From Candidatus Heimdallarchaeota archaeon (GTDB taxonomy: Archaea; Asgardarchaeota; Heimdallarchaeia; JABLTI01): 32,000 nt of DNA. The DNA lies in NCBI GenBank assembly GCA_030614005.1, contig JAUWKS010000024.1, forward strand, positions 1 to 32,000, given 5' to 3'. The notes under the pieces are model-generated. The model saw only the letters and a program-made list of their open reading frames with translations. It made no database searches and had not been told where the DNA came from. Of the stretch, positions 1-20,479 are shown one piece after another (within the stretch, counting starts at the first letter, position 1; every line of letters begins with the position of its first letter). The translations under genes and the position numbers were made by a program.

Positions 1-182
1 AGAACTATTCCAAGTCCTTCTGCTTCTTTAGGTAGAAGATCAGACCAAACTAAATCGGTCCTAACTCTTGGTTTGGATGGGGGTAATGTAAGTATTGGAA
101 CCCACTCTCTTGGAGTAGTTACTTCTAAAGGAAACTTTTGAGTTGCTTTGGTTCGTTTATTAAAATTATTTATTTTAGTCAT
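1..182 (-). CDS. Hypothetical protein, 3'-truncated by the window edge; third gene of the Cas1-fusion operon
   Basis: ATG at 182-180, 14 nt after the Cas1-fusion stop, with a GGTGA RBS (acaggtgaattacATG). Frame is open to position 1: MTKINNFNKRTKATQKFPLEVTTPREWVPILTLPPSKPRVRTDLVWSDLLPKEAEGLGIV... Confidence 0.65.
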   Translation of the reverse strand, partial: MTKINNFNKRTKATQKFPLEVTTPREWVPILTLPPSKPRVRTDLVWSDLLPKEAEGLGIV

Positions 183-195
183 GTAATTCACCTGT

Positions 196-3100
196 TTAAC
201 TGAAATATTGTTTGTAAATCTCCAAGTGCTCTATAATGCAGTTCAAAATTCGCAGCAAATTTCTCGGAGGGGACCAATCTAACCAAAAACTGTTTTGCTT
301 TATCTGCTGCGAGTGATTAATCGCTTCCAAAGCAGCAATTAGATTGATTGTTCTCGTATTGATATGGTCAAAGTTATTTACTAACTCAGGGAGATTTTCA
401 TCTTCTGTAGGAATTCTTCCGATAGAGTATAGTAATTCCTGTACCATTCGGCTAGTGGTGTTCAATTGGTAATAGCATTGCCTGTTAATTTTTTCACGAA
501 TTAATAGCCCCCGAGAAACCATTTGTGAGAGAATTCTTTGGGTTTGGTTTTGCGTCAATTGTAATATTTCTCGAATATGGTTTGTTGAATATTTAGCGAA
601 ATATAGTTCCATCTGAAGAGCATAGGAGAGTAGAACCAATACTATAATCAAACTTCTATCTTGTTCCTTCTTTTGGAATTTAGTTAGCTGTAACTTCTCC
701 CGACCTCGCTTATTATTCCAAGTACGCCATTTCTGCATTGCAAATCCTCGAAACACACTACGAGTTTTTCTAGCAGCGAGTACTCTTTCTTCACTTCCGG
801 CATACAAATCTGCATACTCTGAAGCAAATTTGTTCACTAGGGTGAGATCGCGTTCGATTCCAGAAGGGCATATAACAAAAGGGTTAAAATTAGCTTCTTG
901 AAAACATTGTTTGATTTTTCTCGTACTGAGCTGTTTTTCCAAACGGAATTCTTCAAAATAACTAATAAATGCTTTTCTAAAAATTGCTAAATAGTGCTCG
1001 AATGCTTGGAGAAAGGGAATAGTTTTTCCGTGATAATACACTGGGAGTGAAACTGCTGCTGTGATTAGTTGTTTGATCTTCTTTTGTGCGTTGTTTTTTA
1101 TTCGATAGACCTCTTGTCCTTTTTGTCCTAGCACGAGTGAACAATCATCAATAGTGAGCACTCCTGCTTGCATTGCTTCAAACATAGTTATCAAAGCTAG
1201 CACTCGCACTGGTTCGATAAGATCAAAATATAACCCAAGATTGTCTATATCTGACTTTGTTCGTCTTTTATGGAATAATCCCGCACCCATAAGAGCAGGC
1301 TCAAGACCAATCTTTCTAAACACTTCATCAATTTCTGAGCGGAAGCCCCTAATAAACTGATTAAGGATCACATCTAACGGTGCATATGCATGACTTGTTT
1401 TCCGACTAAAGGAAAGGAACATATCCTTAACTAACCGTGAGGTAACTCTCCCACGCGTCCAGAGACCAACCTTTGCTCCTTCATCTTTGAGCAATTCAAA
1501 GAAAAATCTGTTACTTTGTGCTTCCAGTTGCATGCCATAATAACGAGAGCGTACTCCTCCTGCAACCTTAATTTGTAAATCAATCATCTCGAATAACTGA
1601 CGGTTAATATGTTCATTCGGGAATTCTTTTCTCAGGTTTGTTTTTCTGAGGTATAACCCTCCGCCAATATTTGATAGATGTCTAGCTTGTAAAAAGGACT
1701 GATTGAATGTTTTCTTCTCACCTAGATAGGAAATCACTGTTTGCAAGAATTGGTATTGTTCTTTAGTGAATGGTTTTTCTCGGGATGATTCACTCGATAA
1801 GCTCCTTTTTGATTTTTTCTCTTTTGTTTTTGCTCTACTAATAGTGTAGTGATATTTTTCTGGTTCAAATTCTGCTAATGTTAATAGGAATTTCTCTATT
1901 CTTTTGTAGCGTTTCCCCGAAAAGAAAATATATTGTACTTTTTCAAGTGGTATTTCATTTTTGCAGATAGTAAGAACGAATGTTTTGTCACTCTTCCTTT
2001 CTAACTTTATATTTTCATTGTCATAGATTACAAAAGCATACGAAGGATCTTTTTCCAACAATACTTGTGGGATTGACCCTGCTATTTGATAATAGAGCAT
2101 CCTAAGAAAATGACGATGTTCTGTTTGAATAGTTATGCTTTCTTCATTTTTCTTGAAATAAACTGTGGAACACTTTGGACAACTAACACGTTTGCGAGGA
2201 AAGAATAATTGCTCCTCAGAACCGAACTCTTCTATTTTTTCTTGGCAAGAGCAACAATGGAAAACAGTTTTCTTTGTTTGTCCGAGGAAGTATGAATCAG
2301 CTATTTTTCTCATTTTTAGTGAGAGTTTTTGGATGTTGATAGTAAATCTAACCTTACTGAGAGCTGAATTAAAATCAGCTAAATCTTTGTGGTACTTGCA
2401 CGCTGTTGCCTCTGGTCTAATGGAGCTTTTAGCATAGTTATAATAGTCGCTTGGTACTAGGCTTGGATTGTATGCTTGGAGAAGACGTAGGAGTAAGCAG
2501 GTCTTGAATCGCTTATTATAGCACATACAATTCTCACAAGTTTTCGTTAGAAATGGAAATTTAGTAAATAATTCAAGAGTACCATACTTGAGTTCGGAAC
2601 TACCACTGTTATCGAAAATTTTTAGTGATGTAAGCAAGCCTTCCGCTTTGAAATTTTCCAACTCCTTTTTTGTTTTTTGAAAGTCAAGGTGAAATTTTAG
2701 ACTTGTTTGCTTTACAGTTATAGGTTCATACCCCGCAGATTTTAGCATTGCTTCGCTTCTTTTTTCTTCCCAGGTTCTTTTCTTGTTCTTTTTGTAACTT
2801 TTCAATCGCTGAAAGAATAAGTAAGCATTGGTTTCCATAAGCTTCTCAAAGGCACCCAGTAATTGTATAGATGCAAAACTGGTATAATCTTTGATTATAA
2901 ATCCGAATTCTCTCTCAATAAATTGATCGTAAACATCAAAGGAATCATTAACGAAAGAATCTAAATCCTTCTGCTCACTCTGTTCTGGTAATACCTGAAA
3001 GTCTACATTTTCTAGACCAATTAATAGACAGTAAAATCGAATGATCTCTTCGAGAGATAATTTTGCGCTTGCTTTGATCCGTTTATACAAACAACCTGCT

Positions 3101-3570
3101 AGTTTGTTCAAAAAGGACGAAAACCCGAGCTCTATTCCAGCAATATTAGAGGTGGCAACAAGAACTGCTTCACCTAGTCCTGTAAGATAGTATTTGCTAT
3201 CTTTCTTCTTCTCTACTAATGGAAGAAAAGGAGTGGATTCAGCCGGTTCTTGCCAAGAGATAGTGGTTTTTATCGAATTGCTTTCTGTGTGCCCATAGAT
3301 GGTGTGCGATACTCCCTTGGTAAATAAATTTAATATTTGAATAAGTTTTATCTGAATTCGTTTATCGATTTTTATTTTTCGTTTTTCTATTTTATTTTTG
3401 CAATCTTCATTGTTCCTTGCCAATTCTGGATAGATATTGTTACTAAATAGATGCAGCTTGTATGTTATAGTCTCTTGAATTTTCCTTCGTAAATCAGCGG
3501 CACTTTTTCTTCCACGAAAGAGCTCACCAAAGATGAAAAATTGATAATGTTCATCTGATAAATTTGGCAA
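196..3570 (-). CDS. Large multidomain solo Cas1-fold protein (winged helices + Cys cluster + Zn ribbon + Cas1 + C-terminal wHTH)
   Basis: Cas1 N-terminal beta-like segment (IKLERKSDKTFVL...IPLEKVQYIFFSG). Cas1 helical domain motifs LEAQSNRFFF (E683), PLDVILN...IGLEP...GLFH (H767), LYFDLIEPVR (D783/E786), and a tail resembling YHGKTIPF. Start is a TTG with no RBS, so the true start may be upstream (see findings). Confidence 0.8.
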   Translation of the reverse strand: MPNLSDEHYQFFIFGELFRGRKSAADLRRKIQETITYKLHLFSNNIYPELARNNEDCKNKIEKRKIKIDKRIQIKLIQILNLFTKGVSHTIYGHTESNSIKTTISWQEPAESTPFLPLVEKKKDSKYYLTGLGEAVLVATSNIAGIELGFSSFLNKLAGCLYKRIKASAKLSLEEIIRFYCLLIGLENVDFQVLPEQSEQKDLDSFVNDSFDVYDQFIEREFGFIIKDYTSFASIQLLGAFEKLMETNAYLFFQRLKSYKKNKKRTWEEKRSEAMLKSAGYEPITVKQTSLKFHLDFQKTKKELENFKAEGLLTSLKIFDNSGSSELKYGTLELFTKFPFLTKTCENCMCYNKRFKTCLLLRLLQAYNPSLVPSDYYNYAKSSIRPEATACKYHKDLADFNSALSKVRFTINIQKLSLKMRKIADSYFLGQTKKTVFHCCSCQEKIEEFGSEEQLFFPRKRVSCPKCSTVYFKKNEESITIQTEHRHFLRMLYYQIAGSIPQVLLEKDPSYAFVIYDNENIKLERKSDKTFVLTICKNEIPLEKVQYIFFSGKRYKRIEKFLLTLAEFEPEKYHYTISRAKTKEKKSKRSLSSESSREKPFTKEQYQFLQTVISYLGEKKTFNQSFLQARHLSNIGGGLYLRKTNLRKEFPNEHINRQLFEMIDLQIKVAGGVRSRYYGMQLEAQSNRFFFELLKDEGAKVGLWTRGRVTSRLVKDMFLSFSRKTSHAYAPLDVILNQFIRGFRSEIDEVFRKIGLEPALMGAGLFHKRRTKSDIDNLGLYFDLIEPVRVLALITMFEAMQAGVLTIDDCSLVLGQKGQEVYRIKNNAQKKIKQLITAAVSLPVYYHGKTIPFLQAFEHYLAIFRKAFISYFEEFRLEKQLSTRKIKQCFQEANFNPFVICPSGIERDLTLVNKFASEYADLYAGSEERVLAARKTRSVFRGFAMQKWRTWNNKRGREKLQLTKFQKKEQDRSLIIVLVLLSYALQMELYFAKYSTNHIREILQLTQNQTQRILSQMVSRGLLIREKINRQCYYQLNTTSRMVQELLYSIGRIPTEDENLPELVNNFDHINTRTINLIAALEAINHSQQIKQNSFWLDWSPPRNLLRILNCIIEHLEIYKQYFS

Positions 3571-3594
3571 AGAATTTCTAAATGGGTTGTTGTT

Positions 3595-4302
3595 CTATGT
3601 TCTCTGCCCTTCCTGACATCGAAAGAAAAGACAATTCTCAACTTTGAGCAAGTATTTGTATTCCTCTTGAGTAAGCTCTGGAAACTGAGCACTATCCAGA
3701 AGAAAGGAAAACTGAGGTCTTCGACACTTATGTCGGTGAAGCCCACCAATAATGACATCTAAATCAATAACCTCGTCTTGGCATCTGTATTTAGTTAGCG
3801 GATTAAGAAAGACAATTTGTTCTGTCGTTGGACAGACTTTGTTCACCACTAAATCTCTTAGTTTTTTATAGGTTAACAGAATAAAATCTGCAGTAGTATG
3901 GTTCTGAGATTTAAAGTCCTTGTCAATTTCATCCTTCAAATTATAGATCATATTATAGAGCTTACAACTAGTAGCGTATTTGGTTAATTCTTGTAGTAAT
4001 GCTTCCCCATCTTTCTTTGACTTTACAACAATAAAGACCGGAAATGGAGTGTGTTTTCTCAGAGCTAATATTCGACGAACAGTAAGAGAAACAAGAGTTG
4101 GATTAAGACAACGTTTTTTTGGTTGATAGTTTTTACAAATTAAAGCAAGACTTTTGTCATTTAGCACTAGTAATTTTTGCTCTTCTGTAGTTAAGTCCGT
4201 TAATACAGGGTCATCTAACAATTTTCCTTGCTCTAATATAGAAGTAATACCTAAGGAAAGGCAAAGAGGGATGCTCTTTTTCGGGAATGTTTCTGTACTC
4301 AT
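3595..4302 (-). CDS. Inactivated SF2 (Hel308/Ski2-like) RecA1 helicase domain
   Basis: Order and spacing of elements match a DExH domain 1: Q-like LTTEEQKLL, motif Ia-like VFIVVKSK, motif Ib-like ADFILLTYKKL, post-motif II LDVIIGGL, motif III-like FLLDSA. Walker A (GKT) and DExH are missing. ATG start with a gagttga RBS-like sequence. Confidence 0.6.
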   Translation of the reverse strand: MSTETFPKKSIPLCLSLGITSILEQGKLLDDPVLTDLTTEEQKLLVLNDKSLALICKNYQPKKRCLNPTLVSLTVRRILALRKHTPFPVFIVVKSKKDGEALLQELTKYATSCKLYNMIYNLKDEIDKDFKSQNHTTADFILLTYKKLRDLVVNKVCPTTEQIVFLNPLTKYRCQDEVIDLDVIIGGLHRHKCRRPQFSFLLDSAQFPELTQEEYKYLLKVENCLFFRCQEGQRT

Positions 4303-4508
4303 TATATCAACTCACAAAGGAGGGGTAGCTCTTCCAATAACCGGAAGATATCTCTCTGTATTCTTTTTGTCGGTTTTATTTATAAAGAGCTAAAAAACGC
4401 CCTTTTCCTTTATAAGCGGCAGAAAAAACGACATTCCTTTCTGATTATAATAGAAATTGTGTTTACTACTTTTTTTTATTTAAAATTACTTGTTTCTCAA
4501 TAGTTTTT

Positions 4509-4578
4509 CGCACAAGTGCGCCCGAAGGGTTGACTTCCGTAGGAAGGCAGATAGCACTATGCGAATCGGCTCCGAGCC
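4509..4578. other. Cluster of five adjacent GC-rich mini-hairpins (structured ssDNA or RNA element)
   Basis: CGCAC-aa-GTGCG, CCC-gaa-GGG, CTTCC-gta-GGAAG, ATAG-ca-CTAT, GGCT-ccg-AGCC within 70 nt of otherwise AT-rich intergenic DNA. Confidence 0.6.
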
Positions 4579-4610
4579 AGAGCATTGAAAGAACAATCAA
4601 TATTTTACAA

Positions 4611-6239
4611 CTATACTTTCAAATGAAAGAATTCCTTGACAAATGAATACAAAACTGTATTGTAAAATCTCCTCCCTTTAGGGATAGGGAGTGAAAAATA
4701 ATTACAAAATCTCTTTTTATAGTCTTTTAATAATTGATTTTGCTTGCCAATAAAAAAGAAATAGTTATTTTTGTTCAATTGTATTCCTTGTAACATTGTT
4801 AAAAGTACATCATTTGGTTGTGTATCCAATACACAAGTAGAATTAGTTGATTGAAAAGTTAATTTCTGATTTTCTGTGAAAAATCGTTGGAATGAATAAT
4901 TTGTTTGTATAAAAAAACGCTTGAGAAAGGAAATCGGTATCGCAGTAGCATTCCGTTCATATTGTGAAACCAAACTTTGAGTAATACGAAAGTTTTTAGC
5001 TAGTTCTTTTTGTGTTTGAGTACCGCGTAATGTTTTCAGAAACCCCCCTAACCCTCTAATGCTTATATGTGGTAGTTTTGTATAATCAAAAAAACCATCT
5101 AGTAATTTATCTTCTTTAAAAGCAAGAACCTGTCCTTTCCAGAACCCTTCCTTCAATAAAGTATGTGGTCGAGGAGAAAAACGATTAATTTTTCTTGCTA
5201 GAATTGTCTTTATCTCTGCTTGTTTTTGCGGATGAGCTGTTCCCACTAAATCAGTAAAGTCTTTCCTTGATCGCCCTAAAATACTGACACTATAGGTTAT
5301 ACCTCCAAAAACTTCTTGTTGGTAGTTCTGAAACGTGATATTATGTTGTTGTAGAAATGTCTCAAAGTCTGTAATCAATCTCCGGGAGGCAGAACCAAAT
5401 AATATTGTTGATTTGTAACTTCCATCTGCATCCATTAATCCTCGCCAGAACGCACATCTCATTACTTTATCCGTTTGAAACAAAAACGGTTCGCATAGTG
5501 AAGGATATTTCCGTTCATTTATCGGTTGTCCCGAAAGAAAATTAAAAAACCGAACGATCCATTTACCAAGTATATTTATATTCCAAGCTTGAGCATTTTT
5601 CTGAGGAAAAAACTCAATATTTGATTGGAAATTCTCTTCCAATAACTTCTCTAGATTCTCTATATGCTCTTTTGAATTATCAATGATATTAATAAAATAC
5701 TCTGCGAGATGACCATCACCCATGATAACTCCTACTAAATAAGCAATGTCTTCGGTAAGAAATAGAGGTAGCTGAAAACCTTCTCCTCGTGCAGATTGAA
5801 ACTGGATATATTGTTTTCCTTGAAAGAATCTTTCCCAAGAGGGAAACAACCGGAAAAGAGGAAAGGGGATGCGTTGTTGCTCTTCCAGATAGGAAATGAT
5901 CTTTTGTTGCCAAATACGAATGGACTTATTGTAATTAGAATTCAAAAAATAATGATGAGCTTTTTCTGCGAGAGCAAGAGAATGCTTCCTAATGACGGTA
6001 ACAATATTTGTGTCTAGGAGAATATACGGAAAGGATTGCAGTATTCGTTCTCCGGAAACAAAATCGTTCTTTCGGATCATAAAAGAATAAAGCTGGAATT
6101 GAGCATTAGCTGTAAAAATCTTCTCTCTTTGACCACTCTCTATAATGTCATTTGTTGCTAACCAAGTATTCGGGATAAGAGGTTCAGGGTCAACTAGTAA
6201 TGGATCCGTTCGCCAATTGAGAAAATCTTGCATGATCAT
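4611..6239 (-). CDS. Free-standing LAGLIDADG-family endonuclease-like protein with XRE-type HTH
   Basis: Two LAGLIDADG helices (IAYLVGVIMGDGHL; FWRGLMDADGS) and an HTH (TQKELAKNFRITQSLVSQYE). No intein Hint termini. Confidence 0.8.
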   Translation of the reverse strand: MIMQDFLNWRTDPLLVDPEPLIPNTWLATNDIIESGQREKIFTANAQFQLYSFMIRKNDFVSGERILQSFPYILLDTNIVTVIRKHSLALAEKAHHYFLNSNYNKSIRIWQQKIISYLEEQQRIPFPLFRLFPSWERFFQGKQYIQFQSARGEGFQLPLFLTEDIAYLVGVIMGDGHLAEYFINIIDNSKEHIENLEKLLEENFQSNIEFFPQKNAQAWNINILGKWIVRFFNFLSGQPINERKYPSLCEPFLFQTDKVMRCAFWRGLMDADGSYKSTILFGSASRRLITDFETFLQQHNITFQNYQQEVFGGITYSVSILGRSRKDFTDLVGTAHPQKQAEIKTILARKINRFSPRPHTLLKEGFWKGQVLAFKEDKLLDGFFDYTKLPHISIRGLGGFLKTLRGTQTQKELAKNFRITQSLVSQYERNATAIPISFLKRFFIQTNYSFQRFFTENQKLTFQSTNSTCVLDTQPNDVLLTMLQGIQLNKNNYFFFIGKQNQLLKDYKKRFCNYFSLPIPKGRRFYNTVLYSFVKEFFHLKV

Positions 6240-6352
6240 TCTCCTAGTAAATAGTAAGAAATTGTACTTTTAAAGGCATCTTTGTTTAGCTGTTCGAAAA
6301 ACTAAAAGATTAAGTATTCTTTTAAATAAAGGATAATACTTTCAGTCATCTC

Positions 6353-6381
6353 TTTAGCTAAATGAAATATATTTAGCTAAA
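6353..6381. repeat. Left-end subterminal palindrome of the IS605-type element
   Basis: TTTAGCTAAAT-gaaatat-ATTTAGCTAAA, perfect 11-bp inverted repeat 22 nt upstream of tnpB. Confidence 0.7.
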
Positions 6382-6402
6382 CAATAACAGTATGAAGAAA
6401 AA

Positions 6403-7902
6403 ATGCTCTCAAAAGAACAACGCCTCACAAGAAAAGCATACAAAACACTATTAGCTGATTTGCCAAAGGACGAACTAGAAAAAGCATTAGAACAAATAGG
6501 GCAGATAACAAAACCAGAAGCAAAGAAAAAACCATTACTGCTAACCACTAAAGTAAAGATCCACCCAACACCAGAACAAGAAAAGGTTCTCTGGGTACTA
6601 GCAGAAAACTGTCGGTTAATACATTACTTTGCTAATAAAGAGCGAAAAGAATGGTGGGATAAAAATGAGCATTTACCCAAAAAGAAACAAGATAAAAAGA
6701 ATAGACCGACCTATCACAAGCAGTCAGCACAATTGCCAAAATTAAAAAAGCAATATCCCAGATACAAACAGAACTATGCCAAAACTTTGCAAGAAACACT
6801 CAAACAATTAGAAGCGGATTACAAATCATTTTTTGCATTAAGAAGGAATGTCGATTCAGATGCCAAACCTCCCCGCTTCAAAGGAAAGAAATATTTTACT
6901 ACTATCCACTATAACCAGAGCGGATTCAAGATTGAAGGGAATAAGATTACTTTTAGCCATTTTTATCCAACGAAGGAAACAAAAGAGGTAGATTTAACTT
7001 TTGAGATGGAAGGGAAATTGACTTTCAATGGTAAGCTGGTCAAGCAAGCAACCCTCTTTCAAAAGCACAAGACTAAAGAGTTTTTCTTAGCGATCATTTA
7101 CGAAGAGGAAACACCAACCTACTATGACAATGGCATCTATCAGACAATAGACCTCGGAGTAATCAACCTTGTTGCAGCAACGAATAGCCATGCAGGAAAG
7201 TCATTTATAATCAAAAACAAGCGCGTGGACAAATATTGGCAACGAAAAATAGAGGAAATACAAGGTAAACGGGATCATTGTAAAAAATACTCTAATCGAT
7301 GGCATTGGCTCAATAACAAAATGTGGAAAATGATACGAAAACAAGCAAACCAGTTTAAAGATTTTCAGCACAAAATAAGCAAACAAGTGGTCGAGAACTC
7401 CAGAGCAAACACGATTATCATTGGTGATCTGAACGTTAAGGAAATGTCGAAGGGTAAAAAGAGAGATAAAAAGAACGATAAAAGCAGACATAGAACTATG
7501 CAAAGTACTGGTTCCCTTGGTCGCTTCGCTCGATACTTAACCTACAAAGCACAACGAGTAGGTAAGAAAGTAATAAGGATCAGTGAACGAGATACAACCA
7601 AACTATGCACCTATTGTATGAATAAGGAGAACAGAGCCCTCTCCGAACGAACTATCAGTTGTGATTGTGGGTTAGTAATAGGTCGAGACACAAGCAGTTC
7701 AGGAACACAAATGCAGCGCTTCCTCGCTTTACTAGCACTATCACAGAAACGCCTTGTGGTCAGGCAACGACTCTTGAAGGAATTTCGAGAGAAGTTTTTT
7801 GCGATACACAGCCAAACGTCAAACGAAAGTTCCTCCTGTATTGGAGTTGGGCGGACTCGCAGCGAATCAAAAGTTAACAGAAACGCTTTAAGCGTTCGTT
7901 AA
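6403..7902 (+). CDS. tnpB: RNA-guided endonuclease TnpB (IS605 OrfB family) with rearranged RuvC-II
   Basis: N-terminal KVKIHPTPEQEKVL (OrfB HTH), PPRFK, RuvC-I IDLG (D250), RuvC-II IIIGDL (G341) with alternative Glu in ISERDTTK (E395), Zn finger CTYC...CDCG, RuvC-III RD (D429). Confidence 0.9.
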   Translation: MLSKEQRLTRKAYKTLLADLPKDELEKALEQIGQITKPEAKKKPLLLTTKVKIHPTPEQEKVLWVLAENCRLIHYFANKERKEWWDKNEHLPKKKQDKKNRPTYHKQSAQLPKLKKQYPRYKQNYAKTLQETLKQLEADYKSFFALRRNVDSDAKPPRFKGKKYFTTIHYNQSGFKIEGNKITFSHFYPTKETKEVDLTFEMEGKLTFNGKLVKQATLFQKHKTKEFFLAIIYEEETPTYYDNGIYQTIDLGVINLVAATNSHAGKSFIIKNKRVDKYWQRKIEEIQGKRDHCKKYSNRWHWLNNKMWKMIRKQANQFKDFQHKISKQVVENSRANTIIIGDLNVKEMSKGKKRDKKNDKSRHRTMQSTGSLGRFARYLTYKAQRVGKKVIRISERDTTKLCTYCMNKENRALSERTISCDCGLVIGRDTSSSGTQMQRFLALLALSQKRLVVRQRLLKEFREKFFAIHSQTSNESSSCIGVGRTRSESKVNRNALSVR

Positions 7903-7920
7903 CCAAGATAGACCATAAAA
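7730..7920 (+). ncRNA. Predicted omegaRNA (sense-overlapping RNA) of the tnpB element; boundaries approximate
   Basis: Long low-complexity C-terminal tail after RuvC-III overlapping the right end, as is typical for TnpB omegaRNA. Terminal hairpin GTTAAC-aga-AACGCT-tta-AGCGTT-c-GTTAAC at 7873-7903. Confidence 0.45.
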
Positions 7921-8128
7921 CTATTCAAAGTGAAATATTTTGATTATAAACTACTTCAATAAATAATTTTCAAACTAAAGATAAACTCACCTCGTTAGCC
8001 TACGAAAATATTACAAAACAGATGGTTTACTGTTTGTTTTCTCTATTCGGATAGCAATCGGATAATAACTTATTAAAAGAGTCAATCTTGAATGAAAGAG
8101 AGTATAGTAAAATTTTGAGGAGATTTTC

Positions 8129-9043
8129 TTGGATAAAAAAAGGAAAATTGTTGAATCTGTTCCAAATTATAGCGAAGGAACTGATGGAAAAGTCGTTGAA
8201 GCAATTGTCGATGAAATACGAAAAACACCAAAAACAAACATCATCGATATACAATACGATTCTGATTACAATAGAGCAGTAATTACCTTCGTTGGTGAAC
8301 CGGAAGCAGTATTACAAGCAAATATTGCTGCATCAAAGAAAGCTCTTGAACTAATTGATATGACAAAACACAAAGGTCAACATCCACGCATTGGTGCAAC
8401 AGATGTAGTGCCATTTGTGCCTGCTCAGAATGTTTCAATGGAAGAATGTATTGAACTTTCTAAGAAATATGCAGAAGCTATGGCTACCGAAGGTGTTCCA
8501 ATTTACCTCTATGAAGAGGCTGCAACAAGACCTGAGCGTCGGGACATAGATAATATTCGTGTTGGAGATTACGAAGGATTACGCGAAACTATCAAAACAA
8601 ATCCAGATCACAAACCAGACTTTGGTCCTTCAGAATTCCATCCAAAAGGTGGTGCAACAGTAACCGGAGCAAGAATGGCTTTGGTTTGTTTAAACATCAA
8701 TTTAGGAACCACAAATGTCAAAGTTGCTAAAAGAGTAGCTCGAAGAGTGCATCTTGCTTCAGGTGGGTTAGTTAACATTAAAGCAATGGGCACAGCAATT
8801 GAAGGTAAGGATTATGTTCAAGTTGGTATTAGTAATATCAATTTTAAGAAAACGCCAATGTATAGACAGTTAGAACTTGTTCGGATTGAAGCTGCAAGAT
8901 ATGGTGTATCAGTTATCGGAACTGAACTTGTTGGACCAATTCCTTTAGAATCAGTGCTAAATTCTCTCGAGTATTATCTTCAAATAAACAATCCCAAGCA
9001 CTTGAAAGAAGAACACTTAATCGAACACTATTTCGATTTTTAA
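8129..9043 (+). CDS. ftcD: Glutamate formiminotransferase (FTCD N-terminal domain only)
   Basis: IVESVPNYSEG, DSDYNRAVITFVG, IDMTKHKGQHPRIGATDVVPFVP, PDFGP, GATVTGAR. TTG start with gaggag RBS. Confidence 0.93.
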   Translation: MDKKRKIVESVPNYSEGTDGKVVEAIVDEIRKTPKTNIIDIQYDSDYNRAVITFVGEPEAVLQANIAASKKALELIDMTKHKGQHPRIGATDVVPFVPAQNVSMEECIELSKKYAEAMATEGVPIYLYEEAATRPERRDIDNIRVGDYEGLRETIKTNPDHKPDFGPSEFHPKGGATVTGARMALVCLNINLGTTNVKVAKRVARRVHLASGGLVNIKAMGTAIEGKDYVQVGISNINFKKTPMYRQLELVRIEAARYGVSVIGTELVGPIPLESVLNSLEYYLQINNPKHLKEEHLIEHYFDF

Positions 9044-9058
9044 GTCAAATAATAGATT

Positions 9059-9077
9059 TTGCGAGTAAAACTCGCAA
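9059..9077. terminator. Hairpin between convergent ftcD and hutI
   Basis: TTGCGAGT-aaa-ACTCGCAA, flanked by T-rich runs, in a 45-nt convergent gap. Confidence 0.55.
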
Positions 9078-9088
9078 TTTAATCTTTT

Positions 9089-10378
9089 TTAATTTTCAAT
9101 AACTATTAGACCATTTTTGATAACTTTGGAGACAAGGTTTACTCCAAACTGGTATGATAAGAAATAATGATTTGCAACATCAAAAATTACTATATCAGCT
9201 TTTTTACCAACTTCCAAACTACCAACAGTACTTTCTCTTTGAATTGCACATGCAGCATTAATTGTTGCTGCTGTTAAGGCTTCAGCGGGAGACATTTTCA
9301 TGTTATAACAAGAAAGAACAATTACCATTAACATAGATTCTGTCCAACAATTTGGATTAAGATCTGTAGCAATAGCAACTGGTATACCATATTCAATCAT
9401 CTTCCTTGCAGGCGCGTAATCTTTCATCATTAAACAAAAGGGAGTGCCTGGTAACAAAGTAGCAATAACCTTTTCTTTAGCCATTGCTTTCAAACCTTCA
9501 TCATTTGACTGGAGTAAGTGCCCTGTTTGAACTGCCTGTAATTCTGCAGCAAGAGCAGCACCATTTGTATCAACAATTTCATCAATATGAATAACAGATT
9601 TTATGCTGCGTTTTTTTGCAGCAAGTAATATTTTTCGAGTTTGCTCTATTGAAAAAATACCCTTTTCACAAAAGACATCGCAAAATTCAGCAAGGCTTTG
9701 TTCTTCTATTATTGGAAGCATTTCATTGATGATCAAATCAACATATTCATCTGTTCTTCCTTTATATTCAGGAGGTATAGCATGAGCTCCGAGAAAAGTA
9801 GCAACTAAATCTATTGGATGCTGTTTGTCCAGTTCCTTGATTGCTTTGAGTGATTTTATTTCAGCTTCTACAGATAAACCATAACCAGATTTTGCCTCTA
9901 CTGTAGTGGTGCCGTATTGAAGCATTTTATCTAGTATATTTGCTCCATTTTTTACTAAATCTTCTATTGAAGCTTTTCTAGTTTCTCTGACAGTTTTCAG
10001 AATTCCTCCACCTGATTCAAGAATTTCTAAATAGGTTTTACCAGCGAGTTTCATAGATAGTTCATTTTCCCGAGAACCAGAAAAAATAAGGTGAACGTGT
10101 GGATCCACAAATCCAGGGGTAACCAATTTACCAGTAGCATCTACAACTGCTGTTTGATTACCAATTTTCATTTTCTTTAGAAACTCATCTGAAGTGCCAA
10201 CGAAAATTATCTTATCGTTTTTTATAGCAATTGCTCCATCTTTAATAATAGCTAATTCACTCATTGCCTTACCAACACGTGGTGCACCAATCTTTGAGTC
10301 CATGGTGACCAATTCATTTGCATGTAAAATTACTAAATCAGGAATTTCTTTACTAAAATCACTCTTATTGGAGGACAC
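9089..10378 (-). CDS. hutI: Imidazolonepropionase
   Basis: TPGFVDPHVHL, GGGILKTVRETR, GTTTVEAKSGYGL, TFLGAHAIP, FCDVFCE, ATDLNP. Confidence 0.95.
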   Translation of the reverse strand: MSSNKSDFSKEIPDLVILHANELVTMDSKIGAPRVGKAMSELAIIKDGAIAIKNDKIIFVGTSDEFLKKMKIGNQTAVVDATGKLVTPGFVDPHVHLIFSGSRENELSMKLAGKTYLEILESGGGILKTVRETRKASIEDLVKNGANILDKMLQYGTTTVEAKSGYGLSVEAEIKSLKAIKELDKQHPIDLVATFLGAHAIPPEYKGRTDEYVDLIINEMLPIIEEQSLAEFCDVFCEKGIFSIEQTRKILLAAKKRSIKSVIHIDEIVDTNGAALAAELQAVQTGHLLQSNDEGLKAMAKEKVIATLLPGTPFCLMMKDYAPARKMIEYGIPVAIATDLNPNCWTESMLMVIVLSCYNMKMSPAEALTAATINAACAIQRESTVGSLEVGKKADIVIFDVANHYFLSYQFGVNLVSKVIKNGLIVIEN

Positions 10379-10539
10379 TTTCTTACACTCCTATTTACTG
10401 AACAAATCCTTCAAGGGATAGACCTTTTAATAAATTTCCTTTAATAGATAGAAAAAATATAACAAATATTTAAAAAATCTAAAATAGGCATAAGATATCA
10501 TATAGAAGTTCGTTTAGTAACGAATGAAATCAACAGGAA

Positions 10540-12369
10540 TTGTTTAGTTTGACGGATCTAAAGAAGGAAATCGAAGTTTATGATCGACCTATGTATATGG
10601 ATTTGAAACCTGAAAAATCACTTGAAGCTGATGAAAGTGATAAAATTCTTCATTGTAAAACTTGGGATACAGAAGCGGCACTCCGAATGCTTTACAATAA
10701 TCTTAATCCAAAAGTTGCGCGTAACTGGGAAGAACTAATTGTTTATGGTGGCTCAGGTAGAGCAGCTCGTAATTGGAAAGAGTTTCACAAAATCGTTAGA
10801 GCACTAAAGGAACTCGAACCCGACGAGACACTTTGTATTCAATCCGGAAAAGCAGTTTATATTGCTCCAACGCATACAGAAGCACCTCGAGTGATTATTG
10901 CTAATTCAAATTTGGTTGGCAATTGGGCTACTCAAGGTTATTTCGATGATTTAGATCGTCTTGGATTAATGATGTATGGACAAATGACTGCTGGCAGTTG
11001 GATATACATTGGTACTCAAGGAATTCTTCAAGGAACCTATGAGAGTTTTGCTGCTTCTGCAAAGATTGATTTCAATGCAGATTCTTTGGCTGGAAAACTC
11101 ATCCTAACGGGAGGTATGGGAGCAATGTCGGGTGCGCAACCAATGGCAGCAACGTTGAATGATGCAGTTATTCTCGATGTTGAAGTTAAAGAATCAGAAA
11201 TCGCTCGTAAAGTAGAAGAAGATTACTGTGATAGATTAACCACTAGTCTTGATGAAGCTATTGAATGGGCAATGGAAGCAAAGAAGAAGAAAGAACCTCT
11301 CTCGATTGGTTTAGTTGGCAACGCAGCTGAAACTCATCCAGAATTAGTAAAAAGGGGAATTATTCCTGACATAGTTACAGATCAAACTAGTGCACATGAA
11401 GTAAAGAAATATGTTCCTGTTGGTTATGACAAGAATTATGTAGAATTGCTTGAAAGTGGTGTGAAAATACGAGAAGGAGAATATGTACGTGAATCCTTCA
11501 AAGCAATGGCTTCACATGTAAAAGCAATGATCGATATGCAAGCAAAAGGGGCTATTGTTTTCGATTATGGAAATGCTATAAGAAATCAAGTAGAACTTGC
11601 ACTTAATATTGTTAATAATAGAGCTCCACCAGAAAATAACATGACGGGAGAAGATGTAGCAGATCTAAAACAACACCTTAAGAAAATAGGCATACAATCT
11701 GTTCGAAATGAGCAAGGTGGATATGTTTTTCCAGGATTTGTTCTGAAATACGTTCGACCACTATTCTGTGAAGGAAAAGGACCGTTTAGATGGGCTTGTC
11801 TTTCTGGTAGTGCTAAAGATTTAGCTGCTATCGACGATGCATTACTCTCCACATTCCCTGATGATAAACCACTCACACGATGGATTGATCGTGTAAGAGA
11901 AAAAGTGCCCATATTAGGATTGCCTACAAGAATTTGCTGGTTAGGGTATGGTGAACGGGCGAAATTTGGTTTAATTATTAATGACTTAATCAAAGATGGA
12001 ACAGTAACTGCACCTGTTGTTATTGGCAGAGATCATCTTGATTGTGGTTCTGTTGCTTCCCCAAGCAGAGAAACTGAAGGTATGAAAGATGGTAGTGATG
12101 CTATTGCTGATTGGCCATTGCTTAATTTCGCACTCAATGGTATAAATGGAGCTAGTTGGGTTTCATTCCATCATGGTGGTGGAGTCGGTATCGGTAATTC
12201 CTTACATGCAGGAATGGTTATCGTTGCAGATGGCTCTCCGGAAAGAGAAAAAAGATTACAAAGAGTTCTCACTATTGATCCTGGAATAGGCATTGCTAGA
12301 CATGCAGATGCAGGCTATGATAAAGCAATTAGAATAGCTGAAGAACGAAAAATCAAAATACCAAAATAA
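10540..12369 (+). CDS. hutU: Urocanate hydratase
   Basis: [72 protein letters not shown]. Confidence 0.97.
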
Positions 12370-12387
12370 TGTGTTAGGTGCTACAAA

Positions 12388-13179
12388 ATGAGTTTAGATA
12401 GTTCAGCATTTGATATTGACTGTGATGCTATTTCAGCGAAAGTAGAGCATTTTATCAAAGAATATGTTGAGAATTCCAAAACGAAAGGTGTCGTTGTAGG
12501 TATTAGTGGTGGAATTGATTCAGCAGTTTCTGTAGCTCTCGCAGTTCGAGCATTAGGGAAAGAAAAAGTACTCGGTCTTATTCTTCCAAATGCTGCACTT
12601 AACCAAAAATACGAGAAAGATGCTCGTGAACTAGCTGAGCAATTAGGTATTGAAGTAAGGAAAATATCAATTGCAGGTATGGTTGATGCTTTCAAAGCAA
12701 GTGTAGACAAAGAATTTTTGGAAAACCGACTTGTTGTTGGCAATGCAATGGCGCGAAGTAGAATGGTTCTTTTGTATGCCCATGCAAATTATCTAAACTA
12801 CCTCGTTCTCGGTACTAGTAATAAAACAGAAATCTTAGTTGGTTATGTTACCAAATATGGAGATGGTGGAGCAGACTTTGAACCCTGTGGGGGATTATAC
12901 AAAACCCACATCTGTACACTTGCAAAGTACTTGGATATTCCAAAAGACATCATTACTAAACCTCCTTCTGCAGGACTTTGGGATGGACAAACGGATGAAG
13001 GAGAATTAGGTATTACTTATAAGCTTCTGGACAAAGTGCTTCTAGGTTTTGAGAAAGATTATTCCCATGAAAAAATTGCCAAAGAACTTGAAATAGATAT
13101 TGCCATAATTAAGAAAGTTGAACATATGGTCAAGAAGTCAGAACATAAAAGAAATATGCCCCCAATTTTGGAGTTTTGA
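12388..13179 (+). CDS. nadE: NH3-dependent NAD+ synthetase
   Basis: VVGISGGIDSAV, GNAMARSRM, GTSNKTE, GYVTKYGDGG, KPPSAGLWDGQTDEGELG. Confidence 0.95.
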   Translation: MSLDSSAFDIDCDAISAKVEHFIKEYVENSKTKGVVVGISGGIDSAVSVALAVRALGKEKVLGLILPNAALNQKYEKDARELAEQLGIEVRKISIAGMVDAFKASVDKEFLENRLVVGNAMARSRMVLLYAHANYLNYLVLGTSNKTEILVGYVTKYGDGGADFEPCGGLYKTHICTLAKYLDIPKDIITKPPSAGLWDGQTDEGELGITYKLLDKVLLGFEKDYSHEKIAKELEIDIAIIKKVEHMVKKSEHKRNMPPILEF

Positions 13180-13259
13180 TGAGTAATTTCATTTGAAGAG
13201 ACTAGTAGTTTATATCTCTATTTGGCAAGATATTTTTATGGGGGAATGGTTATTTCCCA

Positions 13260-14000
13260 ATGCAGAAAAATGGATGGTTAACTTTGATGAGTGGTTTACT
13301 GAACTTCCCAGATTTTGAAGAGTTAATTTTTGGAGAAAAAATTGATTCCAAAATAACGAAAAGTAAATTAGTACATATTTATGGCAAAGCGGGTTCGGGA
13401 AAAACTACAGTAGCGATTCAATTAGCCATTGGTTACTGTTTAAAAAATAAAAAAGTCATTTATATTGATACAGAAGGGAAGGTTTCTGGTGAAAAAATTA
13501 GTAACATTGCCTCAGAAGAAAATTTTGAAAAAGTGAATAAAAATATTAGAATCTATTTTCCAAATGATTTTGATACTCAACATGATTTAATTCAAAAATT
13601 GGAATTCTATATATCTAATCAGAATATCGGTGCAATTATTATTGATACAATAACCAACCTCTATCGACAAGCAATGCTTTTTAAAAAAGATACCAATATA
13701 TTGTATGAAAAATTAGCATTCGAAGTGGCATTTTTGAGGAAACTATCTCGAGATAAGAACATCTCAATTATATTAGTTAATCAGGCTACAATGCCTAAAG
13801 CAATTAAAAATGAGGATGACTCTTTAAGCTATAAGTATGAGCGAATTAATCCCGTAGCAAAAGCCATAATGAGTTATTGGGCAGATAGAGAAATCATTTT
13901 AGTTAGTCACGGTTGGGGGAACTTTGAGGCAAGAATTCCAGGTGAATTTGAGCGAAGAGTTAAATTTAGTATTGACTCCAATGGTATAGCACCTCGGTAG
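13260..14000 (+). CDS. RadB/RecA-family recombination paralog
   Basis: Walker A GKAGSGKT, YIDTEG, Walker B IIIDTI, VNQ motif. The RadB KHR motif is not evident. Confidence 0.75.
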   Translation: MQKNGWLTLMSGLLNFPDFEELIFGEKIDSKITKSKLVHIYGKAGSGKTTVAIQLAIGYCLKNKKVIYIDTEGKVSGEKISNIASEENFEKVNKNIRIYFPNDFDTQHDLIQKLEFYISNQNIGAIIIDTITNLYRQAMLFKKDTNILYEKLAFEVAFLRKLSRDKNISIILVNQATMPKAIKNEDDSLSYKYERINPVAKAIMSYWADREIILVSHGWGNFEARIPGEFERRVKFSIDSNGIAPR

Positions 14001-14015
14001 AAACAAGTCTTTCAA

Positions 14016-15047
14016 GTGAAGAAAATGACTCAAGAAGAACAAGCAAACTCTGAAAATAAGAGTGATGAAGAACAAAATTTTGATGAGCATCCAGAAGTAA
14101 TTGAATTGCAAAAAAACCTTACTGGGATGAGTAAGGATCTAATGAAAAAAAACACTGATGGCATTAGAGCAGATATTTCTCAAATATCATCAAAAATAGA
14201 TCAATTGAAAAAAGCAAGAGCTGAACATAATGCTGATGCTAGACATCATCGAAATATGCGGAACAATGTTTCAGATGAAAAATTCGCTATTATAGAAAAA
14301 TTGAGAGAAGAAGCTACTAATGAGAAAGAACTCAGAGAGAAGTGCAATGAACAAATTCGAAATAATAAAGCAAGACGTGAAGAAGTCAAAGAAGAAATTA
14401 GAGCTGCTTGGACTAAAGTAAAGGAGTTACGAGAACGATACTATAAAATGAAGGATGAAGTTGGAGTGATGCCAGAGCAACTAACAGATGAAATTAGAGA
14501 TTTGGAATGGCAGCAACAAACAACACAATTAACTCCAGATGAAGATGCAGCTATGACGAAAAGGATAATAGAATTGTATGAAAAAGCTTATTCTGCACAT
14601 ATTATTGGATATTCTTCAGATGAAACAGAAAAAGCAGTCGAGTTCGCAAAAGCATTGTCAGAAGAACATGATACCGCACATCAAAATGTTCTCGAGTATG
14701 CAGAGAAAGGACAAGTTCACCATGAACGAATGACTAAACTTTACGAGAAAATAGACGAGTCCAGAGCAGGTGGAAGTGGTTTACATGAGAAATATATGGA
14801 TTCGCGTCAAGCAGCAGATATAGCTCATAAAAAAATAGTTGAATTGTATGAGAAAATCAAATTAAATCAACATTTACTAGATTTAATTGATGATGAACAA
14901 ATTAGAAGAAGACATGAGAAATCACAACAAATTAGAAAAGAGCGAATTCAGGAAACGAAAGAAAAACAATCTTCCAATAAACGGATGACTCTTGAGGAAT
15001 TAAGACTTTTAATGGGTGATGATGAAGAAGAAGATGAAGAAAAATAA
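14016..15047 (+). CDS. Archaeal coiled-coil protein (COG1340-like)
   Basis: Heptad-rich K/E/R helical protein with LEWQQQTTQLTPDEDAAMTKRI and C-terminal RMTLEELRLL, a pattern typical of this family. Alternative ATG at 14025. Confidence 0.65.
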   Translation: MKKMTQEEQANSENKSDEEQNFDEHPEVIELQKNLTGMSKDLMKKNTDGIRADISQISSKIDQLKKARAEHNADARHHRNMRNNVSDEKFAIIEKLREEATNEKELREKCNEQIRNNKARREEVKEEIRAAWTKVKELRERYYKMKDEVGVMPEQLTDEIRDLEWQQQTTQLTPDEDAAMTKRIIELYEKAYSAHIIGYSSDETEKAVEFAKALSEEHDTAHQNVLEYAEKGQVHHERMTKLYEKIDESRAGGSGLHEKYMDSRQAADIAHKKIVELYEKIKLNQHLLDLIDDEQIRRRHEKSQQIRKERIQETKEKQSSNKRMTLEELRLLMGDDEEEDEEK

Positions 15048-18585: not shown

Positions 18586-19566
18586 TTAGCTTTGAATGCT
18601 TTTCTTTAGCATCTCACTATTTATTTTTCCAAATGAATGGGTTTTTCCAGTACTTGTATTATTAACATTTAATTTCGCAGGAGCAAAGATAGCAGGATCT
18701 ATCTTGTAAAAATCACCCTTCGCTTCCTTAACAATTTCATAAAATAATGAACCATATTTTGGTGATGTTTCTGAAGTTGCTTTCTTGAGATATTCAATCA
18801 GTTTATTTTCGTCCTTACATTCAACTTGTAAGAACACCTCTGCACCATAAATTAACATATCATTCGTTCGTCCCATCATTAAATCAGTGTTACTCTGATG
18901 AATGGGTGCAATTGGTGCGGAACCACTTGCAGAAATAATTTGAGAAACATCCATTCCAAGATCAAATAATTTATGTAAAGCCGTTTCAACGGATCTCCCA
19001 GAAATTTGGGTAGAGCCTGCAATGCTGGTTGTAGAAACAAGAACAACATATAGACAATCTAATTCAACGTGACATTTATCAGCTATATATTTCAAAACTT
19101 TATCAGTAGGATATTTATCCGTTTCTAAAACAATAACAGTTTCCTCAATTTCTTCAACTAATGGTAACTTCTCGAATATGTGCTTTGGTTTTCGAGCAAG
19201 GACTCTTGCAGGACCACTACCCATTGCTTTGTAATTGTCTTTATCAATTGACCACCCTGCGAATTGTGATCCCAAAGTCGCTTCAACGGGGAAGTCTGTT
19301 ATAATAGAGATAGATGAAAGAGAAAAATCATCAGTAAACTTTGTCGTAGTAAGTGAAACGTCTCCAATACCACCTAAACAAAGTTGAGTTACATATTCTC
19401 CCGCTAAGTAGCCTCCTTTTGCTTTAATGCCAAAATCAATAATTATTGGTCCAAGCTTTGTTTCTAGAACTTTAGCTTTTAGCACATCACTATTACTTAG
19501 CATTTCATCGAATAGTTCGATAGCAGCGGCATTCAAATTTGACTGAATAGTTTTTTTACTTGGCAA
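18586..19566 (-). CDS. mch: Methenyltetrahydromethanopterin cyclohydrolase
   Basis: IIDFGIKAKGGYLAG, ATLGSQFAGW, AMGSGPAR, QISGRSVETALHKL, MGRTND, FYKIDPAIFAPA. Confidence 0.95.
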   Translation of the reverse strand: MPSKKTIQSNLNAAAIELFDEMLSNSDVLKAKVLETKLGPIIIDFGIKAKGGYLAGEYVTQLCLGGIGDVSLTTTKFTDDFSLSSISIITDFPVEATLGSQFAGWSIDKDNYKAMGSGPARVLARKPKHIFEKLPLVEEIEETVIVLETDKYPTDKVLKYIADKCHVELDCLYVVLVSTTSIAGSTQISGRSVETALHKLFDLGMDVSQIISASGSAPIAPIHQSNTDLMMGRTNDMLIYGAEVFLQVECKDENKLIEYLKKATSETSPKYGSLFYEIVKEAKGDFYKIDPAIFAPAKLNVNNTSTGKTHSFGKINSEMLKKSIQS

Positions 19567-19590
19567 CTTAATTCCACCATTCTCTTCGCA

Positions 19591-20478
19591 TCAAATAAGC
19601 TCTTTCAAATTAATATTAATAGAACCTAATTTTCCATCATAATTTGAGCTAGTAATTTTCAATACTCTCTTGTCAACCTTGAGAACATTAATTATACTAC
19701 TCATAGCTTTTTTCATTTCATCAATGTTAATAGCGTTAATGACTATTTCATATGCACATTTGCCATCTTTTGGTAGAGAACTATCTTCAATTTTATCCTT
19801 AAGAGTGGGGCAGAATTTATGATTTGTAGATTCATTCATAAACGAGTATTTTGAACCTATCTTTGATCCGGCACGGCAAATTCCACCAGGAAATGCAGTA
19901 ATTCCTTTTGCACCGGAATTTTGTAAAGCTTTAATCCCATCTCTTGCTGCATTAAGTGTATCTATTTCAGATTCACCTATTATTATCAAAACTCCACCAG
20001 CAATTCCTTTGCCCATTTGGAATGATTCCTCGATTAGAAAAGAACCATCCATTACAGGAATATTCCACATTGTTTTATCAAAAAGTGTGACTTTCTTCTG
20101 ATGCCCATCACCAAAATAAGAAATCAATTTACCAATAGGTTCTGATTTATCTCCATCTTCGAGCATATTGAAGATGTTTGTAGTAGGAGCTGTAAGAGCA
20201 CTTTGTGATAACCTTGCTAACAATGCTTCTTTCATCTTCGAGCTATTTTGAGCCCAAATTTGAATTATTACTCCTGCTCTTCCATCAGGTGTTTCAGTTG
20301 GATTCAAAATTTTTTCTATTCCTGCTTCAGCAGAACACATTATTATACTGGTAGCAAAACCTACGGTATTGTTTGCAGCAATTAATGCTAATTCTAAATC
20401 AGCTGCAGTGATTAATATGCGTGAATAACGCATTTTAAAACATTCAGAAAAAGTATCTTCAACCTTTGCTTGACTCAT
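19591..20478 (-). CDS. ftr: Formylmethanofuran-tetrahydromethanopterin N-formyltransferase
   Basis: VEDTFSECF, GFATSIIMCSAEAGIE, TPDGRAG, GICRAGSKIGSKY, STNHKFCPTL, YEIVIN, NYDGKLG. ATG at 20478 preferred. Confidence 0.93.
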   Translation of the reverse strand: MSQAKVEDTFSECFKMRYSRILITAADLELALIAANNTVGFATSIIMCSAEAGIEKILNPTETPDGRAGVIIQIWAQNSSKMKEALLARLSQSALTAPTTNIFNMLEDGDKSEPIGKLISYFGDGHQKKVTLFDKTMWNIPVMDGSFLIEESFQMGKGIAGGVLIIIGESEIDTLNAARDGIKALQNSGAKGITAFPGGICRAGSKIGSKYSFMNESTNHKFCPTLKDKIEDSSLPKDGKCAYEIVINAINIDEMKKAMSSIINVLKVDKRVLKITSSNYDGKLGSININLKELI

Positions 20479-20479
20479 T

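Follow-up and report, generated by a model that had tools for sequence, protein, structure and literature searches.

Gene content of the locus

The stretch of DNA analyzed here (the window) comprises 32,000 nucleotides of a Candidatus Heimdallarchaeota archaeon (assembly GCA_030614005.1, contig JAUWKS010000024.1, positions 1 to 32,000 of the forward strand). The genome of the window is referred to as G000 and the window contig as C8; the assembly is 90% complete. At the left end of the window the reverse strand carries a gene for a giant Asgard homologue of Cas1 (aCas1), flanked by a LAGLIDADG-type gene and a helicase gene, with a TnpB-only insertion element close by on the other strand. The features of the locus are as follows.

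1 to 182, reverse strand: 5' end of the helicase gene, with ATG at 182-180 and GGTGA at 192-188, cut by the contig end
196 to 3570, reverse strand: C-terminal 1124 codons of the aCas1 gene
862 to 2115, reverse strand: Cas1-fold domain, consisting of a beta N-domain and a helical catalytic domain, assigned by profile match and fold
3595 to 3597, reverse strand: in-frame TAG at codon 236 of the complete gene
3598 to 4302, reverse strand: N-terminal 235 codons of the aCas1 gene, encoding a RecA-like domain resembling superfamily 2 (SF2) helicases
4611 to 6239, reverse strand: lead gene, 542 amino acids (aa), LAGLIDADG (homing-endonuclease/WhiA-like) plus HTH_3
6268 to 7917, forward strand: TnpB-only insertion element of 1.65 kb, with tnpB at 6403-7902, divergent from the operon

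The frame at 196-3570 encodes a protein of 1124 aa (P0001) and had been taken in the original prediction as the whole gene. It is only the larger, C-terminal piece of a gene of approximately 1368 codons that runs from 196 to 4302: the open reading frame (ORF) at 3595-4302 is in the same frame, and the lone TAG at 3595-3597 divides the two. Homologues of full length, all of them single proteins of 1370-1385 aa, span both pieces at 43-56% identity and, where the source names them, are hypothetical proteins of Heimdallarchaeota.

Cas1 identity and domain architecture

A Cas1 signature had been proposed, motif by motif and in order, at approximately residues 510-890 of P0001, and it was borne out by motif positions, by invariance within the family and by fold comparison. 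The motifs are LEAQ (682), PLDVILN (731), GLEP (755), GLFH (764) and DLIEPVR (783), and the catalytic residues are encoded at 1522-1524 (E683), 1270-1272 (H767), 1222-1224 (D783) and 1213-1215 (E786). Pfam Cas_Cas1 (PF01867) did not match P0001 even at E 0.1, and no Cas1 match was returned by NCBIfam, by phmmer against PDB sequences or by a whole-protein profile against PDB. P0029, a distant family member, matches P0001 over residues 693-867 (E 2e-7) and itself matches Cas_Cas1 at 7e-12 and 45.5 bits (cut-off 22.3 bits); membership of P0001 in PF01867 is therefore only transitive, through P0029. The family numbers 21 representatives in 1.84 billion proteins, the most distant of which overlap precisely the flagged Cas1 region, and E683, R708, R712, N737, G755, G764, H767, G779 and D783 are invariant in all 21. 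When a profile of this region from the 21 sequences was compared with PDB, the top two matches were a casposase (6opm, E 0.006) and a Cas1 (4n06). The LN, GxxH and DLxEPxR motifs fall within the alignment, and both structures carry GFLH and DLxEPFR at the aligned metal-site positions.

The structural comparison proposed for residues 500-900 was carried out with an AlphaFold model of residues 490-900, which had a predicted local distance difference test score (pLDDT) of 82.6. Every one of the 49 PDB matches found by Foldseek at E<=1e-3 was a Cas1, reverse transcriptase-Cas1 (RT-Cas1) or casposase chain, the best at E 1.5e-8 with a probability of 1.00. The fold alignments extend over some 380-420 columns, and therefore take in the beta N-domain as well as the helical catalytic domain. 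On the predicted model, residues ~500-900 form a full two-domain Cas1 in which the GR..R and LN motifs accompany an E-H-D(E) metal site. The assignment to Cas1 is right and robust, and the description of a large protein with a full catalytic set stands, with approximately 1000 aa of extra domains.

With respect to these extra domains, a structural model of the first 745 residues of an intact paralogue (pLDDT 79) placed the N-terminal RecA-like domain next to SF2 helicases of the Hel308/XPF-type fold, with weak but consistent matches (E ~1e-3) which included the inactive helicase-like domain of XPF. No Walker A, Walker B or DExx motif was seen in the sequence of this domain. Because Walker A and DExx are missing, the domain is read as inactive and is presumably a degenerate SF2-helicase-like module. 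A winged helix follows (helix-helix-helix-strand-strand, 511-574; weak eS25 and TrmB-type matches), and two invariant Cys4 clusters lie between it and the Cas1 domain. Past the Cas1 domain, a segment of ~60 residues gave three independent weak matches (ArsR-type helix-turn-helix (HTH), Lin1244_N and PADLOC PDC-M05A), which points to a putative C-terminal winged helix. From its N-terminus on, the full protein is thus made up of the degenerate RecA domain, the first winged helix, the pair of Cys4 zinc modules, the complete Cas1 fold and the putative C-terminal winged helix. Within P0001 the order is a helical/beta region, the winged helix, the two Cys4 zinc modules, Cas1 at ~500-900 and the C-terminal winged HTH at ~963-1060. 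In a genome of another Asgard family (G126), open frames of 2096-2772 aa were also seen to contain the aCas1 domain (E 1e-15 to 1e-18), as fusions of still greater size.

Operon partners and copies in the genome

The helicase ATG lies 13 nt past the aCas1 stop, and its frame runs off the contig. Window bases 1-95 are the first 95 bases of contig C18, reversed, and the helicase continues on C18 from base 96. Its start in the window is 80% identical to the N-terminus of a 1063-aa protein behind the aCas1 paralogue on contig C63, which combines DEAD and Helicase_C domains with an MrfA-type zinc domain (MZB) and a calcineurin-like phosphoesterase. The aCas1 gene is shown by these comparisons to be the middle gene of a conserved operon which encodes a LAGLIDADG-HTH protein, aCas1 and an SF2 helicase-MZB-phosphoesterase. 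The operon is present at five diverged loci of the genome (C8+C18, which is the window locus, C63, C48+C29, C9 and C110) and again in another Heimdall genome (locus L007); identity is ~40% for the C9 copy. Upstream of the LAGLIDADG gene, tnpB was found in the window, at C63, at C9, at L007 and at G081:C17. Of the four G000 loci whose upstream region was examined or assembled, three thus have it, the exception being C110. The C48+C29 copy breaks at the contig start within sequence resembling an insertion sequence (IS). In the window, tnpB (NCBIfam guided_TnpB, 172 bits) lies 164 bp upstream of the lead gene and ~2.1 kb from aCas1.

The C110 locus (4831-14557) is highly diverged and has the parts of aCas1 and of the helicase/phosphoesterase on separate ORFs of 212, 680, 498, 172, 771 and 211 aa, of which those of 212, 680, 498 and 172 aa are the regions equivalent to aCas1. 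A NERD-domain protein lies upstream and no tnpB lies alongside.

The distribution of the family is patchy and multi-copy, with members in 23 of 399 Asgard genomes, in 8 of 10 within the genus, and at up to 4 or more copies per genome. Between paralogues, aCas1 and helicase show a synonymous divergence (dS) of 0.2-0.47 and a ratio of nonsynonymous to synonymous divergence (dN/dS) of 0.14-0.17. The LAGLIDADG-HTH genes of the three close loci have a dS of ~2 and 56% aa identity, while the neighboring aCas1 and helicase are 86-93% identical. This contrast indicates recombination or gene conversion within the cassette, such that the loci are mosaics, in which aCas1 and helicase have been under purifying selection.

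A tRNA-Leu gene (C63 5438-5525) precedes the C63 cassette by 100 bp. A tRNA-anchored integration of this copy was considered and rejected, the 3' end of the tRNA-Leu gene not being repeated downstream. The orthologous site in the sister species G081 (~84-90% DNA identity to G000), at G081:C6:36799-45001, matches it in tnpB, in the tRNA and in the LAGLIDADG gene up to ~530 bp from the start of that gene, and ~3.8 kb downstream a different, shorter Cas1-like gene is found (628-aa frame). Modules may have been swapped behind a conserved 5' half of the LAGLIDADG gene.

The protein had been described as a solo Cas1, and for CRISPR (clustered regularly interspaced short palindromic repeat) and PolB partners this holds, while the conserved LAGLIDADG-HTH, helicase and TnpB partners had been overlooked. 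Neither cas2 nor a canonical cas1 (PF01867) was matched anywhere in the assembly, no CRISPR-like repeat array was found in the window, and PolB was absent from the loci examined (Pfam-annotated ORFs of the window, C18, C63, C9 and C110, and the listed L007 genes). The proposed extension past the left edge led to the helicase-phosphoesterase and type I hsdM/S/R genes on C18, and to neither a cas operon nor a PolB casposon. That aCas1 is a CRISPR adaptation Cas1 or a PolB casposon integrase with its partners just past the contig edge is accordingly refuted as far as the sequence is assembled and very improbable overall, the Cas1 fold itself being the only observation in its favor. Its revival would need a mis-join of C8 and C18, against which synteny with the sister genome argues.

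The gene neighborhoods are among the grounds for the main rival to a role in transposition, namely that the operon is a passenger: an array-less, CRISPR-derived defence or DNA-processing module of defence islands, at times carried by TnpB/IS200-605-type elements, whose aCas1 would cut or integrate foreign or damaged DNA rather than move the element. We consider this rather unlikely. Three of the five loci abut type I restriction-modification (R-M) genes, and in another Heimdall genome ~2 kb separate the locus from an SMC/AAA_23-JAB-ThiF cluster. The best matches of the helicase in a defence library were SngC, DruE, BrxH, DpdJ and Cas3, it carries MZB and a nuclease-type phosphoesterase, and five diverged paralogous sets have been kept under purifying selection. 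Defence roles are also predicted for some Asgard Cas1 systems (Makarova et al. 2020, as summarized in PMC8730458). On the other hand, no PADLOC system model fits aCas1 or the operon, and the helicase matches are generic to SF2. TnpB is located upstream of the LAGLIDADG gene even in paralogues of ~40-55% identity and in other genomes.

Mobility of the C9 and G081 sister sub-family

The comparison with empty sites in related genomes that the original prediction proposed was informative for the sub-family to which the C9 copy belongs. At C9 a perfect 18-bp inverted repeat, found with a targeted script, encloses tnpB and the three operon genes over a span of 11,141 bp; the top lists of a generic repeat finder run on C63 and C9 held only AT-rich noise. 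This unit is bounded by the two ends, left and right, that characterize an IS200/605-like family of elements, with an omega-RNA-like scaffold in the right end. G081 has, at a different site, an element of 84% identity in which these perfect repeats recur. The C9 site is an uninterrupted host ORF in G081, of which G000 lacks 292 bp, and the G081 insertion site is clean and empty in G000. Given these reciprocal empty sites, the 11.1-kb unit has moved since the species split, and genome comparison therefore shows that the C9-type element moved as a unit. Where a non-canonical mobile element or a domesticated DNA-processing machine had been offered as alternatives, the former is now the better supported, a sister cassette having moved as a unit.

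The 18-bp repeat is subterminal, with conserved sequence reaching 14-23 nt past it on both sides. Miniature inverted-repeat transposable elements (MITEs) of ~290 bp have the same ends and carry a GC-rich, structured tnpB-3' (omega-RNA-like) segment; from their sequence these segments are likely to be omega-RNA scaffolds without the TnpB gene. Two MITE-like elements of ~290 bp with the same 18-bp inverted repeat were seen in G000 at C5:1-325 and C124:1-330. The C9-type ends occur 25 times in G000 and 0-10 times in relatives. From the three insertions examined, the target may be a short G-rich stretch with GG or GGTT at its end. At the clean junction the host sequence ...GGGTT is followed by the element, which ends ...CGGTT, and by host AAC..., and the empty site reads ...GGGTT AAC.... 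In a second, short-element insertion the left junction is clean, and on the right-end side 408 bp are found versus 39 bp. No match to the Y1 transposase TnpA (PF01797) or to serine recombinases (PF00239) was found in the assembly.

State of the window copy and its island

The window aCas1 cassette lies just outside the left end of the 1.65-kb TnpB element, copies of which begin at ~6268 and end at ~7917. On the other side, the 3' end of the window helicase overlaps a convergent type I hsdM gene. A search for a distal element end, or for an inverted repeat pairing the TnpB side with the helicase or R-M side, yielded nothing convincing. Synteny with G081 resumes at window position 7931, at the flank formed by the hut operon, and in G081 no more than 231 bp separate this flank from the sequence found behind hsdR on C18. 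From this junction it follows that a block of 16.7 kb (window 1-7930 plus C18:96-8857), comprising the TnpB element, the aCas1 cassette and type I hsdM/S/R, is an island without a counterpart in the closest relative, and the same comparison confirms that C8 and C18 are correctly joined. The placement of the window copy in a variable island together with hsdMSR is a further observation in keeping with a defence module. Against this, defence islands are equally typical locations of mobile elements. Of the 231 bp, 224 resemble the 3' end of a HExxH (YgjP-like) gene behind hsdR at C63, which suggests island turnover rather than simple insertion.

The right end of the 1.65-kb element, ...TAACCAAGATAGACCATA, occurs 16 times in the genome, mostly less than 500 bp from contig ends, compared with 0-4 occurrences in relatives, which suggests that a recent burst of copies has fragmented the assembly. 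The core genes flanking the island (8129-12369 and 18586-20523) are FtcD, an amidohydrolase in the hutI position and urocanase; MCH and FTR; and ABCE1 and CDC48. The island thus borders histidine-utilization genes and genes of tetrahydromethanopterin (H4MPT)-linked one-carbon (C1) metabolism. An ORF of 507 aa at 28386-29909 had no Pfam match.

The nonsense codon was assessed by comparison with other copies. TAG is carried by contigs of the probable source run and of a second run belonging to that study, whereas the two closest paralogues in the same genome have CAG at this position, as does a contig of 98.4% identity that comes from an independent study. A pyrrolysine reading was ruled out: a search of the genome for PylS returned nothing above the family cut-off, and CAG is found in the paralogues and in the near-identical strain. 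Judged from these sequences, the TAG is a recent, strain-level CAG>TAG nonsense mutation, and neither recoding nor an assembly error. It splits the aCas1 gene, and the description of the window copy as an active integrase is for this reason doubtful.

The window gene may then be a dead relic, a pseudogene left after duplication which has no present function whatever the rest of the family does; we regard the chances of this as evenly balanced. The stop at codon 236 and the missing distal element end are consistent with such a relic, as is the poor start of the downstream piece, for which the next possible initiation codon is a TTG eight codons beyond the stop, with no GGTGA-type motif and no obvious ribosome-binding site upstream of it. 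However, the mutation is very recent, given the CAG of the other study, the remaining frame is intact over 1124 codons with a dN/dS of 0.15 versus paralogues, and the stop falls in a variable linker past the N-terminal domain. As C110 naturally splits the equivalent regions, a split protein could work if the second piece were translated. Overall, because it is stranded without a distal end, lies in an island and carries a new nonsense codon, the window copy is probably recently inactivated and no longer (fully) functional.

Proposed role of the aCas1 cassette

The reading which best accommodates these data, and to which we assign a probability of approximately 50%, is that the window copy encoded the integrase of a TnpB-linked mobile element and is now stranded and recently inactivated. 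In intact copies aCas1 would break and join DNA and so move these elements, probably in company with the helicase-nuclease and the LAGLIDADG-HTH protein. It would stand in for the missing TnpA and could act in trans on many TnpB-only and MITE derivatives, while TnpB and its omega-RNA would serve retention or homing. As the assembly contains no Y1 or serine transposase, aCas1 is the obvious transposase candidate, although the support is circumstantial. A more specific proposal, to which we give tentative and less than even credence, is that the cassette is the machinery of an IS200/605-like TnpB/omega-RNA family that would have lost TnpA, with target-specific insertion, a duplication of 0 or 4 bp and mobilization in trans. 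In such Cas1-driven IS200/605-like transposition the LAGLIDADG-HTH protein might be the targeting subunit.

Several observations weigh against aCas1 as the integrase. The clean insertion has at most an ambiguous 4-bp duplication (GGTT), two other insertions have discrepancies of 292 bp and 408 bp on the right-end side, and the element ends are asymmetric with the 18-bp repeat subterminal. Compared at the sequence level, these junctions appear to have IS200/605-type hallmarks, unlike casposon or Cas1 integration. Asymmetric ends without duplication are classically the product of HUH Y1 transposases, and the gene for a Y1 transposase could lie in the 10% of the genome missing from the assembly or on a different replicon. 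An internal region of the C9 element is 76-77% identical to the left-end region of short IS copies, as would be expected if a short TnpB element had captured neighboring genes; the cassette could equally be explained as cargo. The stretch of hsdM shared among the three window-type copies varies (54 bp, 570 bp or the whole gene), and these copies therefore arose through segmental duplication or recombination and not through precise transposition. The conserved motif GTTCACTCA, described downstream of tnpB in published aCas1 loci, had no exact match in the window; matches with one mismatch were below chance expectation and none was downstream of tnpB. A literature search found no experimental work on any aCas1.

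The IS605-like rather than Cas1-like junctions, and a C110 version without an adjacent TnpB, are also what a passenger operon would predict. The genome, however, has no other recognizable transposase for its dozens of IS and MITE copies.

Comparison with known systems

Asgard Cas1 homologues, those linked to TnpB included, have been published, and the window protein is therefore not new in kind, as its original description had left open. They were described by Makarova et al. (2020, CRISPR J 3:156), as summarized in PMC8730458. Altae-Tran et al. (2023, PNAS; PMC10691335) reported aCas1-associated TnpBs in two Asgard groups, Cas1H-Asgard-1 and -2, and proposed aCas1 as the transposase of repeat-flanked loci. 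In these loci a hypervariable stretch downstream of tnpB precedes the conserved motif (PMC10691335). The window protein belongs to this published kind, as matched by the published descriptions. It shares with those loci an Asgard (Heimdall-group) host and a diverged Cas1 homologue with tnpB adjoining most copies, and the proposed transposase role would, by analogy, be common to both. As in published aCas1, divergence is extreme, standard profiles miss the protein, and there is no array or cas2. While the C9/G081 sub-family is repeat-flanked and mobile, like the published repeat-flanked loci, the window copy is not; it lies outside the ends of the TnpB element and has a nonsense codon.

With casposases, represented by that of Methanosarcina mazei (6opm), aCas1 shares a Cas1 fold outside CRISPR, and 6opm was the best PDB match of the sequence profile and among the best fold matches. 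Family-2 casposases have a C-terminal HTH behind the Cas1 domain, and the predicted C-terminal HTH of aCas1 may be its counterpart. Casposon target-site duplications measure ~14-15 bp. The aCas1 elements have a duplication of <=4 bp, no PolB and no long terminal inverted repeat at the true termini, so that the casposon analogy, with its terminal inverted repeats and long duplications, is not sustained by their IS200/605-like junctions. They differ also in the ~1000 aa of extra domains and in the TnpB, LAGLIDADG and helicase-nuclease partners.

Compared to CRISPR Cas1 (A. fulgidus 4n06, RT-Cas1 7kfu), the two-domain fold, the E/H/D(E) ligands and the flanking motifs are the same. In contrast, identity is 11-15%, below the Pfam threshold, the protein is four times larger, and there is no Cas2, array or leader.

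The C9-type elements resemble IS200/IS605-IS1341 elements in their asymmetric ends, in insertion without appreciable duplication by a short G-rich target, and in having the tnpB 3' end no more than ~30 bp from the right end, where a GC-rich, structured scaffold is located. Scarless empty sites and many TnpB-only or miniature copies are shared with IS200/IS605-IS1341 and with MITEs of the PATE (palindrome-associated transposable element) type. Unlike IS200/IS605, the genome has no Y1 or serine TnpA, the 11.1-kb form has a three-gene aCas1 cassette where tnpA would be, and the 18-bp subterminal inverted repeat is perfect.

Significance

Two settings of Cas1 are known: CRISPR adaptation and casposons. 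The Asgard Cas1 homologues are a third, barely explored radiation, of which a giant form is present at five loci of one genome. The window copy alone is worth less, being cut by the contig end and interrupted by a nonsense codon. The C63 paralogue is intact, the element ends are defined, reciprocal empty sites are known and the insertion signature is IS605-like. If aCas1 does move these elements, TnpB, the ancestor of Cas12, and Cas1 would be functionally linked within one transposon, and Cas1 would have a new transposition chemistry. Such an element would be a living case in which a Cas1 integrase works together with an ancestor of Cas12, and would bear directly on how type V CRISPR systems were assembled.

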